From assembly GCA_048938855.1 (NCBI GenBank), contig JBHLLT010000001.1, forward strand, positions 320,124-384,123: a DNA stretch of 64,000 bases. Direction: 5' to 3'. This stretch comes from Promethearchaeota archaeon (GTDB lineage Archaea > Asgardarchaeota > Lokiarchaeia > Sigyniarchaeales > SOKP01). The notes beneath the pieces were generated by a model that searched no databases, was not told the DNA's origin, and saw only the letters and a list, made by a program, of their open reading frames with translations. The translations under genes and the position numbers were made by a program. This document shows positions 38,718-46,065 of this stretch, piece by piece (position 1 is the stretch's first letter; every line of letters starts with the position of its first letter).

Positions 38718-39560
38718 ATGGTAAAGTATAATATTAGAAAACCAACAGATAAAGAAATTTTAAAATGTATAAATGTACTTTATTCTGCTTTTGATAGACC
38801 TCTCCCAACAAAGATAAAAGTAGAAGAAAAAATATGGAAAGCTTTAATAGAATCAGAAATTGGCACATTCCTTATCTCTGAGGAAAATGGAAAACTTTTC
38901 GGTGTTGGAGGAGTATTTTTTTTCGGGAAAGTCAGTAGTTTTGGATATATGGCTGTATTACCAGAATACAGATGTAAAGGAATAGGAACTGAGATTTTTA
39001 AAAGTTTGTTGGAGATTGCTAATCAAATGAAATGTGAAACAAATTTTCTGTATGCTTCTAAATTAGGAAAACCAATCTATCAAAAATTTGGTTTTCAAGA
39101 AAGCTTTTATGCCACAATGTATCAATTATCAAAACAGAAACCAGAATTTCAAATTCATAATTATAGAGTTAAGGAATTGAAAAAGATTCCAAAATGGATA
39201 TTAAGTCTTGATAAGCAAGCAATAGGATATGATCGTGAAAGATATTTGACGTTTAGAGTCGAATTTGGAGCGAAAATCTTGGCTGTAGAAAATGTAGGGT
39301 TTGGTTTATTAGCAAATTCGCGTTTAGGTCCATTAATAGCAACAAATCAAATTGTTGCTCAACAGATAGTTAAGAAAAGTGTAAATTTAGGTGCTGATCA
39401 TATGATAGTTACGAACCACAACTATATTCCGAAACCATTGTTCAAATCAATAAATCTAGTAGAAGAAGAAAAGAATGCTAATGTTAAGATGGTTCGAGGA
39501 AAAAAACTCTCTGAAAAATTAAGTTTATTGTATGCTATTGCTACATATGCTAAAGGGTAA
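38718..39560 (+). CDS. GNAT acetyltransferase (tandem-domain, YitH-like)
   Basis: MAVLPEYRCKGIG, LYASKLGKPIYQKFGF, D..AIGYDR, LGPLIA. Confidence 0.85.
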   Translation: MVKYNIRKPTDKEILKCINVLYSAFDRPLPTKIKVEEKIWKALIESEIGTFLISEENGKLFGVGGVFFFGKVSSFGYMAVLPEYRCKGIGTEIFKSLLEIANQMKCETNFLYASKLGKPIYQKFGFQESFYATMYQLSKQKPEFQIHNYRVKELKKIPKWILSLDKQAIGYDRERYLTFRVEFGAKILAVENVGFGLLANSRLGPLIATNQIVAQQIVKKSVNLGADHMIVTNHNYIPKPLFKSINLVEEEKNANVKMVRGKKLSEKLSLLYAIATYAKG

Positions 39561-39563
39561 AAG

Positions 39564-40070
39564 TTAATTCTTTATTGATTTTGTTCTACGAATTCGAATT
39601 TTTTTTAATGAAAGTAAATACAAAATTCCTGCAATAAATTGTAAATAGATCGCGACATATGGCCAATAATAGTTGATCCCCCAAAAAGTTGGATACCCCC
39701 TTACAACAATATAGATAACTTGTAAGCCAATTATGAGAAAGAGAGGGGTAGCAATCATAAAAATCCCTCCAATGTAATAATACATTAATTTTAATTGCTG
39801 CTGCCTTTTTTCTTTTAATAATATGAAAAAGATTAAAAAACAACTTACGAAGATAAAAATTGAAGAAATTATACCTGGAATTAAAAATTCTAATTCCAAA
39901 TCAAAGGTAAATCCAATTTCACTTGAATTTAACCCGAAAAAGAGAGTAAGACCCCAAAACCAAAAGTTGTACATATAATTAGGGCTAATATGGAAAATTA
40001 CTGGAGTGAATAATGAAATAATACCAATCATTCCGGAAGATAATGAGATTTTATTATAAACCGATTTCAT
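39564..40070 (-). CDS. Hypothetical membrane protein (~4 TM)
   Basis: Several hydrophobic segments and a basic C-terminal tail. Confidence 0.7.
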   Translation of the reverse strand: MKSVYNKISLSSGMIGIISLFTPVIFHISPNYMYNFWFWGLTLFFGLNSSEIGFTFDLELEFLIPGIISSIFIFVSCFLIFFILLKEKRQQQLKLMYYYIGGIFMIATPLFLIIGLQVIYIVVRGYPTFWGINYYWPYVAIYLQFIAGILYLLSLKKIRIRRTKSIKN

Positions 40071-40196: not shown

Positions 40197-42179
40197 TTAA
40201 CCTATTTCAACGTCTATTTTCTTACGTTCTTTAAGTAAATCGTCTACTACAGAAGGATCTGCTAGGGTTGTGACATTTCCAATATCAGTACCGGCAGCAA
40301 TCGCTTTTAAGATTCTTCGCATTATCTTACCACTTCTCGTTTTAGGTAGAGCATCAGCAAATTGTATGACATCAGGTTGGAATACTGGGCCAATCTCATT
40401 TCTTACATGCATTCTTATTTCCTTAGCTAATTTAGCTGATTTTTCAACTCCTTGCATAAGAGTTACATAGGCCCAGATAGCTTGTCCCTTGATTTTATGA
40501 GGAAAAGGAGCGACAGCGGCTTCAGCTACTTGCGGATGACTCACGAGAGCAGACTCTACTTCCATTGTTCCTATTCTATGACCGGATACTTTAATAACAT
40601 CATCAAGTCTACCTAAAATCCAATAGTAGCCATCTTCATCACGTCTAGCACCATCTCCAGTATAATAACATCCAGGATAGCGTTCTAAATAAGTAGAAAT
40701 AAACCTCTCAGTATTGCCCCAAACATCTCTTAACATACCTGGCCAAGGTTGGCCCATTGCGAAATAACCTCCTTCATTGGGTTCGGTTATTACATCACCC
40801 TCTAAGTCAAAGATGACTGGCTTAATACCTAAGAATGGCATACAACAAGAACCAGGTTTAGTTGGTGTTGCTGTTGCAATAGGAGTCATAATAAAACCCC
40901 CTGTTTCTGTTTGCCAATAAGTATCTACTATTGGGCATTTTTCTTTTCCGACTATTCTATGATACCAGGTCCAAGCCTCAGGATTAATTGGTTCTCCAAC
41001 TGTTCCTAACACTTTTAAAGAACTAAGATCATGCTTATTTACTAACTCATCACCAAACCTCATTAAAGCCCTTATAGCTGTAGGGGCAGTATAAAAGTGT
41101 GTTACTTTATGATCTTCACAAATCTGCCAAAATCTATCATTATTAGGGTAAGTCGGAACCCCTTCATACATAAGGGTAGTTGCACCATTTGCCAAAGGTC
41201 CATAAACGATATAACTATGACCGGTAATCCATCCAATGTCTGCTGTACAATACCAGATATCTCCTTCATGGTAATTAAATACAATTCTATGGGAAAAGGA
41301 TGTGTAGAGAATATAGCCTGCTGTGGTGTGTTTTACACCTTTAGGTTTTCCCGTTGTTCCACTTGTGTATAAAATAAACAATGTATCCTCAGAATCCATG
41401 ACCTCAGGTTCACATTCTTCACTCATACCATCTATGAATTCATGATACCAGATATCTCTACTAGTATGAGGAACTTCATTTCCTGATCGTTTCACAACAA
41501 TAACATGTTCTATTGTTGGAACTTCATCAATTATTTGTACAACATCAGCCATTTTTGGATAATATTTTCCTGCTCTTACAGTTTCATCACTAGTAAATAA
41601 TAGTCTTGAGTCGGAGTCGTCAACTCTATCTTTCACAGCTTCTTTAGAAAATCCTCCAAATACAATTGAATGAATGACTCCAATCCGAGCACACGCTAAC
41701 ATAATTATTGCTAATTCTGGAATCATTGGTAACCATATTGTAACTCGATCTCCTTTTTTCAAGCCAAGTTTCCTCATCCCATTTGCGACTTTATTCACTT
41801 CCCTTAAAAGTTCATTATATGTATAGGTCTTTGCTTGACGAGGTTCATCAGCTTCCCATATAATAGCTAATTTATCTCCATTCCCTGCTTTCACATGTCG
41901 ATCTAAGCAATTAAATGCTACATTTAGTTTTCCACCAACAAACCATTTTCCGGGGAATAAATCTGTTTTTTCCCATACTTTTTCATATGGTTCAATCCAA
42001 TCTAGTGATTTTGCTTGTTCTCCCCAAAATCCTTCCATATCTTCAATAGATTGTTGATAAAGCTTTTTGTATTCTTCCGAGGAAATCCCTGTTTTTACAA
42101 ATTCGGGATTCAAGTCTTTAGGATTAAAAATGCGGTTCTCGGTTAAAATACTTTCCATTTTATTGTCTTCTTCAGACAT
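40197..42179 (-). CDS. acsA: AMP-forming acetyl-CoA synthetase
   Basis: LYTSGTTGKPKG, CTADIGWITGHSY, TVGEPINP, DTYWQTETGG, YTGDGA, GRLDDVIKVSGHRIG, PKTRSGKIMRR. Confidence 0.96.
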   Translation of the reverse strand: MSEEDNKMESILTENRIFNPKDLNPEFVKTGISSEEYKKLYQQSIEDMEGFWGEQAKSLDWIEPYEKVWEKTDLFPGKWFVGGKLNVAFNCLDRHVKAGNGDKLAIIWEADEPRQAKTYTYNELLREVNKVANGMRKLGLKKGDRVTIWLPMIPELAIIMLACARIGVIHSIVFGGFSKEAVKDRVDDSDSRLLFTSDETVRAGKYYPKMADVVQIIDEVPTIEHVIVVKRSGNEVPHTSRDIWYHEFIDGMSEECEPEVMDSEDTLFILYTSGTTGKPKGVKHTTAGYILYTSFSHRIVFNYHEGDIWYCTADIGWITGHSYIVYGPLANGATTLMYEGVPTYPNNDRFWQICEDHKVTHFYTAPTAIRALMRFGDELVNKHDLSSLKVLGTVGEPINPEAWTWYHRIVGKEKCPIVDTYWQTETGGFIMTPIATATPTKPGSCCMPFLGIKPVIFDLEGDVITEPNEGGYFAMGQPWPGMLRDVWGNTERFISTYLERYPGCYYTGDGARRDEDGYYWILGRLDDVIKVSGHRIGTMEVESALVSHPQVAEAAVAPFPHKIKGQAIWAYVTLMQGVEKSAKLAKEIRMHVRNEIGPVFQPDVIQFADALPKTRSGKIMRRILKAIAAGTDIGNVTTLADPSVVDDLLKERKKIDVEIG

Positions 42180-42588
42180 ATTACTTCACATTATTAGTTT
42201 TTTTCGTATAAGATTATATTCATTTGATATTTAACTAAATTCTATAAAAATTTTAAAGATCTCTTTCCACCCTCATCAATTTTAAAGTTTTTGGTTTAAT
42301 ATAAACAAGAGGGAAACAATTGAGAATTATTTTGTATTGCTTTTAAACATTTTATTTATAGATCAATTAAGATGAGCCTTATTACATAGGATTTAATAAT
42401 CTAGATATTTGAAAAGTTAATTTTTTATTAGAGTGGTAAATTCTAAATTTGAGAGGAAGTATAATTTTTAAACCCATTTTATTTAAACTTTCAAAAACAA
42501 TATAATATTGTTATTTTTAATTGAAGCTTATATAATAAATAATATTTGAATAAAATAACAAAAAATTTTGAGGAAGTAGATCAATTTT

Positions 42589-44478
42589 ATGACATTTGAT
42601 TGGAGGGAACAGTGGAAAGATAAGGAAATCTCAGTATCAGAAGCAATAGAGAAAATAATACCCGGGAATCGAGTTTTTATTGATTCTGGATGTGCTGAAC
42701 CGCAATTGTTAACATCAGAATTAATCAAACACTCAGAAAAGTTAATTGATACTGAAATTCTTCATTTTTTAACAATTGGCCCTGAAAAATATTTTAAGGA
42801 TAAAGCTGAAGATCTTTTTAGACATAATGCTTTTTTCATAGGAAAGACCCTACGTGAGGAAATAAATAGAGGACAAGCAGATTATACACCGATATACGCT
42901 AGTGAAATTCCTTCTTTGTTTCAATCAGGTAGAAAACATATTGATGTAGCCCTTATCCAAGTTACTCCTCCTGATCCATATGGTTTTTGTTCCTTAGGAA
43001 TTAATGTTGATATTGCAAAACCAATAGCACAATCATCTTACCTTACTATTGCAGAAATTAATCCTCAAATGCCTCGAACTTTGGGAAATAGTTTTATTCA
43101 TATGAAAGAAATAGACTATTTTGTGTATAATGACACTCCTTTGCTACAATTTTATTTTGATGAACCAGATGAAATTGCACAAAGAATAGGAAGAAATTTG
43201 GCTAATTTAATTGAAAACAAATCAACCATTCACATAGGGTTCGGCGATCTTCCCAATGCGGCTTTAAAGTATTTAGAAGATAAAAAGGATCTTGGAATGC
43301 ATTCTCATTATATTACAGATAATGTAATACCACTTATTGAAGGAGGAGTATTAACATGTCGAAAGAAAAATTTTCATCCTGAAAAAATCATAACCAGTTT
43401 TGCTCTAGGAACTAAAAAATTATACAATTTCATACAAAATAATCCTTATATAGAATTTTTTCCTTCTGATTATGTCTGTAATCCAAAGTATATTGGCATG
43501 AATAAAAATATGGTCTCAATAAATTCCGCCCGACAGATTGATTTAACAGGGCAAGTAAATGCAGCAACCGAAGGTTATCGTTTCTATTCTGGATTAGGCG
43601 AGACTATTGATTTTATGAGGGGGGCTGCATTTTCTAAAGGAGGAAAGCCTATTATAATAATCCCTTCAACATCTAGAGATGGTAAAAAATCACGTATAGT
43701 ACCTCATTTAGATGAAGGTGCTGGAATATTATTGTCTCGTGGCGATGTTCATTATGTTGTAACTGAGTGGGGTGTAGCTTACCTTCATGGTAAAACTATT
43801 CGTGAAAGAGTTCTTGAATTGATTTGTATAGCACACCCAAAATTCCGACAAACACTTTTAGATGAAGCTAAGAAATTAAATTATATTTTTTCTGATCAAA
43901 TGCTTCCGTGCGATGAAGATGGTCGAATCTGTTTATATCCCTCGGAATATGAAACAATTTTTATAACAAAAGATAAAGAAAAAATAAATATTCGCCCTGT
44001 AAAAACTACAGATGAACAAGCATTAAAAGAATTGTATTATTCTTTAAATGAAAGAGATAGGTATTTAAGATTTTTCGAATTGAGGAAGGAATTCACTCAT
44101 TCAAAAACTCAGAGTGAAGTAAATATTGATTATGACAATGTATTTTCATTAGGAGCATTTATTGGGGAAATAGGTAAAGAAGAAATGATAGGAAGCGCTA
44201 CTTATTATTTAAATCCTGAAATGAATATGGCAGAGTATAGTTTTTTGGTTAGAGAAGATTATAGGGGAAAAGGTGTTGGGACTTTTTTATACCAACATAT
44301 TATTATTATCGCCAAGGAGAAAGGTATAAAGGGATTCTATGGGAACATCCACATTCAAAATAAAGAAACAATTCGTGTTATTCATAAGGGAGGTTATACT
44401 AAGATAACTCCTCCAGATATCGGAGAAAAAGAATTGTTTTACAGAGTCTTCTTTGATAAAGAGGATGCTATTAAATAA
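42589..44478 (+). CDS. Acetyl-CoA hydrolase/CoA-transferase-like domain fused to a Pat-type GNAT acetyltransferase
   Basis: IDVALIQVTPPD, EINPQMPRT, IDLTGQV, DFMRGA, VVTEWG..LHGK, IAHPKFR. C-terminal IRPVK..D..LYYSL..RYLRFF..AEYSFLV..YRGKGVG. Confidence 0.9.
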   Translation: MTFDWREQWKDKEISVSEAIEKIIPGNRVFIDSGCAEPQLLTSELIKHSEKLIDTEILHFLTIGPEKYFKDKAEDLFRHNAFFIGKTLREEINRGQADYTPIYASEIPSLFQSGRKHIDVALIQVTPPDPYGFCSLGINVDIAKPIAQSSYLTIAEINPQMPRTLGNSFIHMKEIDYFVYNDTPLLQFYFDEPDEIAQRIGRNLANLIENKSTIHIGFGDLPNAALKYLEDKKDLGMHSHYITDNVIPLIEGGVLTCRKKNFHPEKIITSFALGTKKLYNFIQNNPYIEFFPSDYVCNPKYIGMNKNMVSINSARQIDLTGQVNAATEGYRFYSGLGETIDFMRGAAFSKGGKPIIIIPSTSRDGKKSRIVPHLDEGAGILLSRGDVHYVVTEWGVAYLHGKTIRERVLELICIAHPKFRQTLLDEAKKLNYIFSDQMLPCDEDGRICLYPSEYETIFITKDKEKINIRPVKTTDEQALKELYYSLNERDRYLRFFELRKEFTHSKTQSEVNIDYDNVFSLGAFIGEIGKEEMIGSATYYLNPEMNMAEYSFLVREDYRGKGVGTFLYQHIIIIAKEKGIKGFYGNIHIQNKETIRVIHKGGYTKITPPDIGEKELFYRVFFDKEDAIK

Positions 44479-44527: not shown

Positions 44528-45322
44528 ATGAGATTTAAATTTACAGATTTTCATGTTCACACCAGACCATGGAGTACAGATGTAGCACAAGATGGCCCTA
44601 CTTTTGAAGATTATATCGAAGTAGCACAAGAGCATCAAATTAATGTCTGTTTCCTAAACCATTATGAACTTTATTATGTAGAGAACGACAAGACTAATCC
44701 ATTCTATAATGGAAAAATTAATAACTATCTTGAAGAGATCGATGTATTAAAAGAGACCTATGATTTCATACTCAGTGGATTAGAAGTTGAATATTATGAG
44801 AATAAGGAACTTAAGATAATTGAATTTATGGATGATTACAGTAAAGAATTTGATTTTATTGGGGGTTCTATTCATGAATGGATAATTGGATATCCTATTA
44901 CCACAAAATCAGGATTAGAAAGACTACTTGAAAAAATACCAATGAAAAAAATTATAGATGACTATTTTAACATAAGTACAAAAATGATTAATTCCCAAAT
45001 TTTCAAAAATATATGCCATCTTGACACTATCTTTCGCTATATTAATAATAATGAGTTCGTACCCGAAAATAATTGTGATGTATCTGATAATCGAATATTA
45101 GAATTAGGTAGATTATGCATAAAAAACAATCTACGAGTAGAAATGAATTTATCGGGATTACGATTTCCAATAAAAAGATCATTTCCTTCTATGGATGTGA
45201 TAAAAACATTAAAAAAAGAAGGGGGTAATATATTTGTGGGATCTGATTCACATTCTTTAGATTATTTTAAAGAACAAATCCCTAAAGTAATAGAAGCTTA
45301 TAGAGTAATAAATGCACATTAA
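44528..45322 (+). CDS. PHP-family phosphoesterase (HisJ/HisK-like)
   Basis: DFHVHT, GLEVEY, DFIGGSIH, CHLD, EMN, GSDSH. Confidence 0.88.
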   Translation: MRFKFTDFHVHTRPWSTDVAQDGPTFEDYIEVAQEHQINVCFLNHYELYYVENDKTNPFYNGKINNYLEEIDVLKETYDFILSGLEVEYYENKELKIIEFMDDYSKEFDFIGGSIHEWIIGYPITTKSGLERLLEKIPMKKIIDDYFNISTKMINSQIFKNICHLDTIFRYINNNEFVPENNCDVSDNRILELGRLCIKNNLRVEMNLSGLRFPIKRSFPSMDVIKTLKKEGGNIFVGSDSHSLDYFKEQIPKVIEAYRVINAH

Positions 45323-45345
45323 ACATTTTAGGAATTAAGGTTAAT

Positions 45346-46065
45346 ATGGAATTTAAAGAATTTTCAAATAAAATTGATAAATGGGATCAAAAGATTATTT
45401 TAAAATATAATGGATTTGGTGGTAGACCATTCACTATTTTTCTTAGAATACTTTCCTTTTTTGGTCGAGAAACTCTGTGGCTTTTGTTAATCGCTTTTTA
45501 TCTATTTGTTTGGTATGATCCATTTTTATTATCTTATATATCTGCTACATTTCTTACAGGATTATTTTTAATTTTAATCATAAAATATTTAGTAAAAAGG
45601 AAAAGACCATTTGAAAGATTTGAAGAAGGAAAAATAGTGGTTTTAGAGGGAAAACCTACCTCGAGAAGCTTTCCTTCATGGCATTCTTATAATGTTACGT
45701 CACAGGGTCTATTGTTTAGCCTAATTTTTATTAAATCACCAATTATTAGTATTTTACTTCTCATACTTGTGGTGGTAGTTTCTTTTTCAAGAATTCAACT
45801 TGGTGTTCATTATCCTTCTGATGTCATATTTGGTTGCATTTTTGGTATAGCAGGATTTTTTATATCAATATTTTTAATCAGTCCTCTTATATTAAAACTA
45901 TTAACCTATCTAGAACAGTTTATACCATTTGAAATTCAATATCAAGGAATAAACTCATTATTATTCAGTAACATATGGTATATGCTACTCTCGATTAGTG
46001 TGTTTCTTGCGATTCTTGTTCTAAGTTTATATAAAAAAATTTTAGGATTATTTAAGAAATATTAG
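45346..46065 (+). CDS. PAP2-family membrane phosphatase
   Basis: KYLVKRKRP, SFPSWHS, SRIQLGVHYPSDV. Confidence 0.92.
   Translation: MEFKEFSNKIDKWDQKIILKYNGFGGRPFTIFLRILSFFGRETLWLLLIAFYLFVWYDPFLLSYISATFLTGLFLILIIKYLVKRKRPFERFEEGKIVVLEGKPTSRSFPSWHSYNVTSQGLLFSLIFIKSPIISILLLILVVVVSFSRIQLGVHYPSDVIFGCIFGIAGFFISIFLISPLILKLLTYLEQFIPFEIQYQGINSLLFSNIWYMLLSISVFLAILVLSLYKKILGLFKKY

Follow-up and report, generated by a model that had tools for sequence, protein, structure and literature searches.

What does a CoA-transferase-like domain do when it lacks its catalytic glutamate, is joined to a protein acetyltransferase and is encoded next to an acetate-CoA ligase? This question is raised by a locus of a Promethearchaeota archaeon (assembly GCA_048938855.1), found in the stretch of 64,000 nt analysed here as a whole and referred to as the window (contig JBHLLT010000001.1, positions 320,124 to 384,123, forward strand). 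In this locus the acsA gene, encoding an AMP-forming acetate-CoA ligase (Acs), lies head-to-head with a gene for a fusion of a coenzyme A (CoA)-transferase-like module with a Pat-type GNAT acetyltransferase domain. In bacteria the reversible acetylation of a lysine of Acs is a textbook example of a metabolic switch; for archaea, to our knowledge, little is known of such control, and for the Asgard lineage, the nearest to eukaryotes, nothing. The best-supported reading of our results is that the locus encodes a Pat-type control of Acs that uses a new regulatory module, which in this clade has been remodelled. The window has a G+C content of about 30% and contains genes of archaeal or Asgard type (TFB, an Arf/Rag-like GTPase and HEAT-repeat proteins, by Pfam), and the closest homologues of the fusion come from metagenome-assembled genomes labelled Lokiarchaeota, Promethearchaeota, Hodarchaeota, Thorarchaeota and Hermodarchaeota. 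The features of the locus, in window positions, are as follows.

40197-42179, minus strand: acsA, AMP-forming acetate-CoA ligase, 660 aa (TIGR02188, 950 bits, cut-off 725)
40326-40328, minus strand: codon AAG of Lys618 in PKTRSGK (PX4GK), position computed
42180-42588, no strand: divergent spacer of 409 bp with a conserved A/T-rich block inside
42589-44478, plus strand: fusion gene, 629 aa, CoA-transferase-like module and Pat-type GNAT
42619-43134, plus strand: CoA-transferase N-terminal domain, residues 11-182 (PF02550, AcetylCoA_hydro N, E 2e-30)
43231-43233, plus strand: His215, where 93% of canonical relatives have Gln; invariant in the clade (121 of 121)
43306-43308, plus strand: His240 (CAT) at the position of the catalytic Glu nucleophile, by alignment to 9vag, 3eh7 and 2oas
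43408-43869, plus strand: CoA-transferase C-terminal domain, residues 274-427 (PF13336, AcetylCoA_hyd_C, E 2e-59)
43477-43479, plus strand: Cys297, in place of an Asn 96% conserved in canonical rows; Cys in 121 of 121 members
43591-43614, plus strand: GLGETIDF, residues 335-342, in place of GxGGQxDF, by phmmer alignment to PDB chains
43915-44397, plus strand: Pat-type linker and GNAT domain, residues 443-603 (phmmer, SlPatA GNAT 3e-15, PatZ 4e-14)
44233-44235, plus strand: Glu549, equivalent of PatZ Glu809 and SlPatA Glu123 (catalytic base), by alignment to 9it0
44263-44280, plus strand: acetyl-CoA phosphate loop Arg559-Gly-Lys-Gly562-Val-Gly564 (R/Q-x-x-G-x-G/A), from the sequence

The open reading frames and the positions of the fusion, His240, GLGETIDF, AcsA and Lys618 agree with those of an earlier, sequence-only reading of the window, which had proposed that a dead CoA-transferase serves as a sensor of acyl-CoA or acetate and governs the acetylation of Acs. 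Searched with phmmer against PDB chains, residues 1-430 of the fusion matched the solved 4-hydroxybutyrate CoA-transferases (E 5e-117 to 2e-98) with no large gaps. In the alignments as printed, HSHY falls on HTEM and GLGET on GfGGQ, and because of this pairing both replacements that the sequence-only reading had named, of Glu by His at the nucleophile and of GGQ by GET in the GxGGQxDF loop, rest on alignment and not on a guess from motifs. The nucleophile Glu is essential in family I CoA-transferases, for example Glu249 of RipA (PMC3180442) and Glu294 of AarC (PMC4876117). As to the hallmarks of class I CoA-transferases, the fusion has the two-domain alpha/beta fold and lacks the catalytic Glu, the GxGGQxDF loop and the conserved Asn; its score with TIGR03948 (butyryl-CoA:acetate CoA-transferase) was 252 bits, below the equivalog cut-off of 674.8. 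The AlphaFold2 model of the fusion was confident as one body (mean predicted local distance difference test score 91.7, predicted template modelling score 0.88), and its comparison in Foldseek with the CoA complex 2oas gave a template modelling (TM) score of 0.95 and a root-mean-square deviation of 1.5 A. Homology to the group of AbfT from C. aminobutyricum (3gk7), the S. oneidensis enzyme (2oas) and Y. pestis RipA (3qli) extends over their full length, with 37-41% structure-based identity and TM scores of 0.93-0.95. Unlike these enzymes, the fusion has the Glu, the GGQ loop, the Asn and the Gln replaced and a GNAT domain attached.

As a canonical reference we used 75 relatives with Glu and GGQ intact, among which 73 columns are at least 85% conserved. 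The window's clade, comprising 121 cluster representatives that are 75-89% identical, retains 63 of these 73 columns, and the fixed changes in it are five only: Q215H, E240H, N297C, G338E/D and Q339T. Residue 240 is His in 116 of the 121 representatives, Tyr in 4 and Leu in 1. An acid is invariant at residue 338 (Glu in 63, Asp in 58), and Thr339 is present in 120 of 121. As the same residues recur throughout the 121 representatives, the replacements are not a matter of chance. Comparison with the class I enzymes described in PMC3180442 and PMC4876117 showed that the changed positions are the nucleophile and its surroundings. Judged by its constant offset from the nucleophile, Cys297 is the probable equivalent of Asn347 of AarC, and from the same offset we infer that residue 338 corresponds to Gly388; in AarC these two residues form the internal and the external oxyanion hole, respectively (PMC4876117).

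We also considered whether the CoA-transferase domain is a decaying relic and rejected this, since it is conserved as strongly as the GNAT domain: mean identity across the 121 relatives was 0.82 and 0.81 for the two CoA-transferase halves and 0.795 for GNAT. By its pattern of conservation, which resembles that of a ligand-binding domain, the module appears to be remodelled and under strong constraint. The canonical glutamyl-CoA chemistry is predicted to be lost in the window's clade, which represents a family of Lokiarchaeia-like Asgard archaea. The description of the CoA-transferase as dead thus holds insofar as the canonical nucleophile is gone, and has to be amended insofar as five positions have been rebuilt as a conserved set within a constrained domain.

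The origin of the altered site was followed on a maximum-likelihood tree built without the trait's own columns. The clade (support 100/99) groups with one Phe240 sequence (100/100) and is nested in a group (96/92, then 100/100) that otherwise keeps Glu; His240 is therefore derived. The alternative, His as the ancestral state and Glu as the later one, was rejected by the same tree. Fusions make up about two thirds of the 150 best representatives obtained by clustering at 50%. Glu is absent from 38 of the 100 fusions among the rows analysed, which required at least 14 changes on the tree, and stand-alone enzymes account for 2 changes. This distribution fits the idea that catalysis by the module may become dispensable once it is fused to GNAT. 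Independent-pairs tests of fusion against loss of Glu, and of loss of Glu against an acid at 338, gave a median p of 1 and had no power.

The same family contains a clade of stand-alone homologues of about 425 aa (P0212, P0220, P0223, P0234, P0239, P0241, P0245, P0252, P0259, P0266 and P0269) in which Gly stands in for the nucleophile, His replaces Asn297 and GGQ is kept. Their residues predict another non-canonical active site in the family.

The second half of the fusion was recognised by the sequence-only reading as Pat-like, and this was borne out. In phmmer searches the C-terminal 190 residues, of which a 'YP' linker forms part, matched the GNAT domains of S. lividans PatA (SlPatA, 3e-15), E. 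coli PatZ (4e-14), Sulfolobus Pat and M. tuberculosis Pat (MtPat), and these four proteins make up 8 of the 9 PDB sequence matches of the GNAT part. Every one of the nearest relatives of known structure is a protein lysine acetyltransferase, and Acs is a substrate of three of them. In the alignment Glu549 pairs with residue 809 of PatZ (chain 9it0); it is Glu in 121 of 121 clade members and corresponds to the catalytic Glu of PatZ (Glu809) and SlPatA (Glu123) (PMC12184503). The acetyl-CoA loop, defined as R/Q-x-x-G-x-G/A (PMC8556138), is present as R-x-x-G-x-G, with Arg559 in 121 and Gly562 in 119 of the 121 members. Taken together, these residues identify the GNAT half as Pat-type, with its catalytic features predicted to be intact.

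Pat-type GNAT domains were found in this genome only as parts of two CoA-transferase fusions, that of the window and a second one on contig 49 (262867-264672; L002:913-2820, minus strand). The latter encodes 635 aa, is 51% identical to the first and has an intact HSEV/GIGGQVDF site; its neighbours are radical-SAM, HhH-GPD, TatD and ThyA-like genes, with no acs nearby, and it may serve other targets. A third family member in the genome is a stand-alone transferase of 431 aa with an intact site. Candidate erasers of acetylation are encoded elsewhere in the genome by three SIR2 (sirtuin) genes and at least three HDAC-type genes. One sirtuin gene lies about 1 kb from a paralogous AMP-binding acyl-CoA synthetase gene (contig 49, 375255-378367), and the two could possibly form an eraser-substrate pair.

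The divergent gene encodes a genuine Acs: the 660-aa product exceeds the TIGR02188 equivalog cut-off and carries the PX4GK lysine. Own-genome searches showed that it is the sole true AcsA orthologue, accompanied by 14 distant AMP-binding paralogues. Lys618, which the sequence-only reading had pointed out as the acetylatable lysine kept in PKTRSGK, is equivalent to Lys609 of S. enterica Acs, the lysine acetylated by Pat (PMC12184503).

Is the pairing of the two genes more than a coincidence of one genome? In a phylum sample of 301 genomes the fusion was found in 165, and the His-type fusion (at least 70% identity) was confined to the window's family, here called f1, in which it occurs in most genera. 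Thirty f1 loci were fetched, of which 28 had enough flank to judge. In 27 of these acs is divergent from the fusion, either within 1.3 kb (21 loci) or behind about 2 kb of unrelated inserted genes (6 loci), and in the remaining one acs lies 13 kb away on the same contig. The f1 genus g2 is without both the fusion and acs. The same arrangement is seen in a second Asgard family, f9, where all 19 evaluable loci have the fusion and acs in divergent orientation, and in a third, f18, the fusion is adjacent and tail-to-tail with acs. The linkage to acsA described by the sequence-only reading is thus found well outside this genome. The acs-linked fusions of f9 and f18 keep HTE[ML]/GIGGQ, so that the link with acs is older than the loss of Glu and independent of it; the view that this loss underlies the pairing with acs had to be given up.

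Some details of these loci deserve mention. In both f9 loci whose spacer was read, a gene for a major facilitator superfamily (MFS) transporter precedes acs in the same orientation (L064:4305-5657, L067:8115-9398); the MFS gene, acs and the intact-site fusion look like a unit for uptake and activation of acetate or another carboxylate, together with its modifier. The acs matches of several relatives were reported with one or two in-frame TAA/TAG codons or in two pieces (for example G144:C2:88609-90639 and G210:C10:621054-623185), which may reflect run-through of the alignment at the natural stop, faulty assembly or broken genes. In many related genomes the fusion or acs stands at the end of a contig.

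Outside the Asgard archaea, species genomes were scanned with a pattern that included HTE and was thus biased towards intact sites, and the 80 best loci were examined, their motifs with a crude regular expression; these loci are no measure of how often Glu is lost. All 80 encode full-length fusions, and they come from Myxococcota, Planctomycetota, Chloroflexota, Acidobacteriota, Thermoplasmata, Methanothrix and many others. The design is thus not peculiar to this archaeon and belongs to a very large family that spans Bacteria and Archaea. In 12 of these 80 loci, which represent many bacterial and other archaeal phyla, a true acs (identity of at least 49%) was located within 8 kb of the fusion. 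None of the other window neighbours recurred near fusions outside f1, acs being the sole neighbour shared across lineages. An ADP-forming acetyl-CoA synthetase was encoded within 8 kb, with both of its subunits or domains, in 38 of the 80 loci (L079-L158), 10 of the 12 acs-linked ones included, which makes this enzyme the commonest fusion neighbour outside the Asgard lineages; it is nearly always absent from the f1 and f9 loci of the Asgard archaea. The family is therefore one of the acetate/acetyl-CoA node, and in the lineage of the window it is paired with Acs alone. Its recurrence next to acs in unrelated lineages is stronger evidence than the synteny within f1.

From these results we lean towards the view of the fusion as an acetyltransferase of the Pat class whose CoA-transferase-like module has taken the role played in Pat/PatZ by the dead acyl-CoA-synthetase domain. 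In Pat enzymes of types I and II, this catalytically inactive domain binds acetyl-CoA and activates GNAT, and in Pat/PatZ it drives oligomerisation, opens the GNAT domain and shapes the Acs pocket (PMC8556138, PMC12184503). Most likely the fusion switches AcsA off by acetylating one lysine, as the linkage of the genes suggests. The module would bind CoA or acyl-CoA without turnover, and its fixed packing against GNAT, probably together with oligomerisation, would set the activity of the latter. The GNAT domain would then use acetyl-CoA to acetylate Lys618 of AcsA, by which adenylate formation would be blocked. Reversal of the acetylation would fall to a sirtuin or an HDAC-type deacetylase encoded elsewhere in the genome.

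Comparison with known systems shows how far this likeness goes. The Pat enzymes of types I and II (S. enterica Pat, E. coli PatZ/YfiQ 9it0/9isq, and SlPatA, GNAT structures 4nxy/4u5y) share with the fusion the GNAT cassette, the 'YP' linker, the catalytic Glu and the acetyl-CoA loop. They also have a large CoA-ester-related domain fused to GNAT that has lost its own catalytic residue, and a genetic tie to an AMP-forming Acs with the PX4GK lysine. However, their regulatory module is a nucleoside diphosphate (NDP)-forming acyl-CoA-synthetase fold of about 700 aa, as opposed to the class I CoA-transferase fold of about 430 aa, and the missing catalytic residue is His in the former and the Glu nucleophile in the latter. 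Unlike type I/II Pat, many relatives of the fusion keep an apparently active module, and for the fusion allostery and Acs acetylation are proposals. Type III Pat enzymes (MtPat with cAMP, 4orf; actinomycete ACT-GNAT proteins; M. xanthus MxKat with NADP+) resemble the fusion in layout, in that a sensor domain comes first and a Pat-type GNAT, which in these enzymes has Acs as its substrate, follows at the C-terminus, but the fold of the sensor differs; the NADP+ domain of MxKat is set apart from the module by its description in reviews as a Rossmann fold. The fusion scored 45.7 bits with NF058543 (mycobacterial Pat), for which the cut-off is 460. In B. subtilis a GNAT gene is likewise divergent from acsA (acuABC and acsA) and deacetylases are present in the genome; AcuA, in contrast, is a single-domain GNAT of another subfamily, and the possible sensor AcuB is a separate protein.

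Several points weigh against a Pat-class switch of this kind. The replaced residues do not look random: His215, His240, Cys297 and the acid at 338 look like a purpose-built centre. The f9, f18 and bacterial acs-linked relatives keep Glu and GGQ, so that in the ancestral state the module may be a working enzyme and sensing may be superfluous for the linkage. Given that ADP-forming acetyl-CoA synthetase is the commonest neighbour outside the Asgard lineages, Acs may be only one of several targets. Within f1, the genes downstream of the fusion (PHP phosphatase, PAP2, GTPase and TFB) are as syntenic as acs, and for this reason the acs linkage in this family, taken alone, is weak evidence.

The two last points lead to the explanation that survives best among the others, namely that the acs neighbourhood does not reflect a pairing of enzyme and substrate. 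The fusion would then acetylate lysines more generally around the acetyl-CoA node, with targets such as other acyl-CoA synthetases or the ADP-forming acetyl-CoA synthetase, or it would be an N-acetyltransferase of small molecules. The 14 further AMP-binding paralogues of the genome would offer such targets, the ADP-forming enzyme accompanies the fusion in other phyla as described, and synteny in f1 does reach unrelated genes. We nevertheless regard this explanation as unlikely. Adjacency to acs is seen again and again, in three or more Asgard lineages as well as several other phyla; its rate of 15% of loci is far above the roughly 1% that we estimate for 1-2 gene copies in a span of 16 kb, and no other neighbour is common across lineages. 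In addition, the second fusion, with its intact site, is not linked to acs, which suggests a division of labour between the two fusions.

The look of a purpose-built centre suggests another explanation, in which the pocket has been rebuilt into a new catalytic or covalent-sensing centre with Cys297, His240/His215 and Asp/Glu338 as a Cys-His-acid triad at the thioester site. An acyl group, or CoA as a disulfide, would be taken onto Cys297, and the module could serve as a thioesterase, pass acyl groups on to GNAT, or sense acyl-CoA or redox state covalently. The near-invariance of these residues in the clade (Cys297, His215 and the acid at 338 in 121 of 121 members, His240 in 116 of 121) speaks for it, as does the fact that the canonical equivalents of residues 240, 297 and 338 all contact the reacting carbonyl (PMC4876117). 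The change of Asn297 to Cys, moreover, recurs in other fusion lineages in which Glu is changed. Yet the sister sequence P0123 has Phe240 and Ser297, and thus no triad is shared with it; residue 240 is Tyr or Leu in five clade members; and the equal shares of E and D at 338 are loose for a precisely placed catalytic residue. We consider such a centre distinctly unlikely. Its consequence for regulation, that a covalent acyl-CoA or CoA-thiol (redox) signal at a Cys-based centre and not reversible binding governs Acs acetylation, seems to us a similarly slim prospect.

That CoA-transferase activity is retained, with the carboxylate of Glu/Asp338 as the nucleophile of a bifunctional transferase and acetyltransferase, is very improbable: the acid is invariant in the clade and, in a sample of 164 relatives, occurs only without Glu240 (16 rows vs. 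0 of 112) in three or four separate lineages, but the covariation test that bears on this had no power, the presumed internal oxyanion-hole Asn297 and Gln339 are replaced too, the glycine otherwise found at 338 is strictly conserved superfamily-wide with its backbone amide as the external oxyanion hole (PMC4876117), closely related sequences switch between E and D, and the TIGR03948 score is far under the cut-off of 675.

Further features were noted around the two genes. In the divergent spacer an A/T-rich block (TTTAAACATTTTATTTATAG...) at 42342-42375, with a TATA-like TTTATA, is at least 80% conserved among the aligned spacers of 18 relatives and is possibly a B recognition element (BRE)/TATA element. 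A scan of the locus for sigma-70 promoters and terminators gave a shuffle-level score, the scan model not being applicable to an archaeon. Past the fusion, on the same strand (44528-46065), lie a gene for a HisJ-like PHP phosphatase of 264 aa, starting 50 bp after the fusion stop, and then one for a PAP2 phosphatase. The two may be co-transcribed with the fusion; they are syntenic with it in 7 of the 7 larger f1 loci, and neither was seen near fusions outside f1. Downstream of acs (38718-40070) there is a 168-aa open reading frame that matched nothing in Pfam or NCBIfam and, on the opposite strand, a gene for a 280-aa two-domain GNAT (Acetyltransf_9/7 and Acetyltransf_18).

A regulatory domain of the CoA-transferase type is absent from the published classifications of prokaryotic lysine acetyltransferases that we examined, which list NDP-forming synthetase-like, cAMP, ACT and NADP+ domains, and a full-text literature search found no paper on a CoA-transferase-GNAT fusion. 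Databases name such proteins only 'GNAT family N-acetyltransferase' or 'acyl-CoA hydrolase/GNAT'. Should the Cys-based centre prove true, it would represent new chemistry on the CoA-transferase scaffold. If the Pat-class reading that we favour is true, the fusion would represent a sixth kind of Pat regulatory module, very widespread in uncultured Bacteria and Archaea. The family would then offer a natural series from apparently active to remodelled modules, which could show how an enzyme domain becomes a sensor, and for the Lokiarchaeia-like archaea the likely writer of Acs acetylation would have been named.

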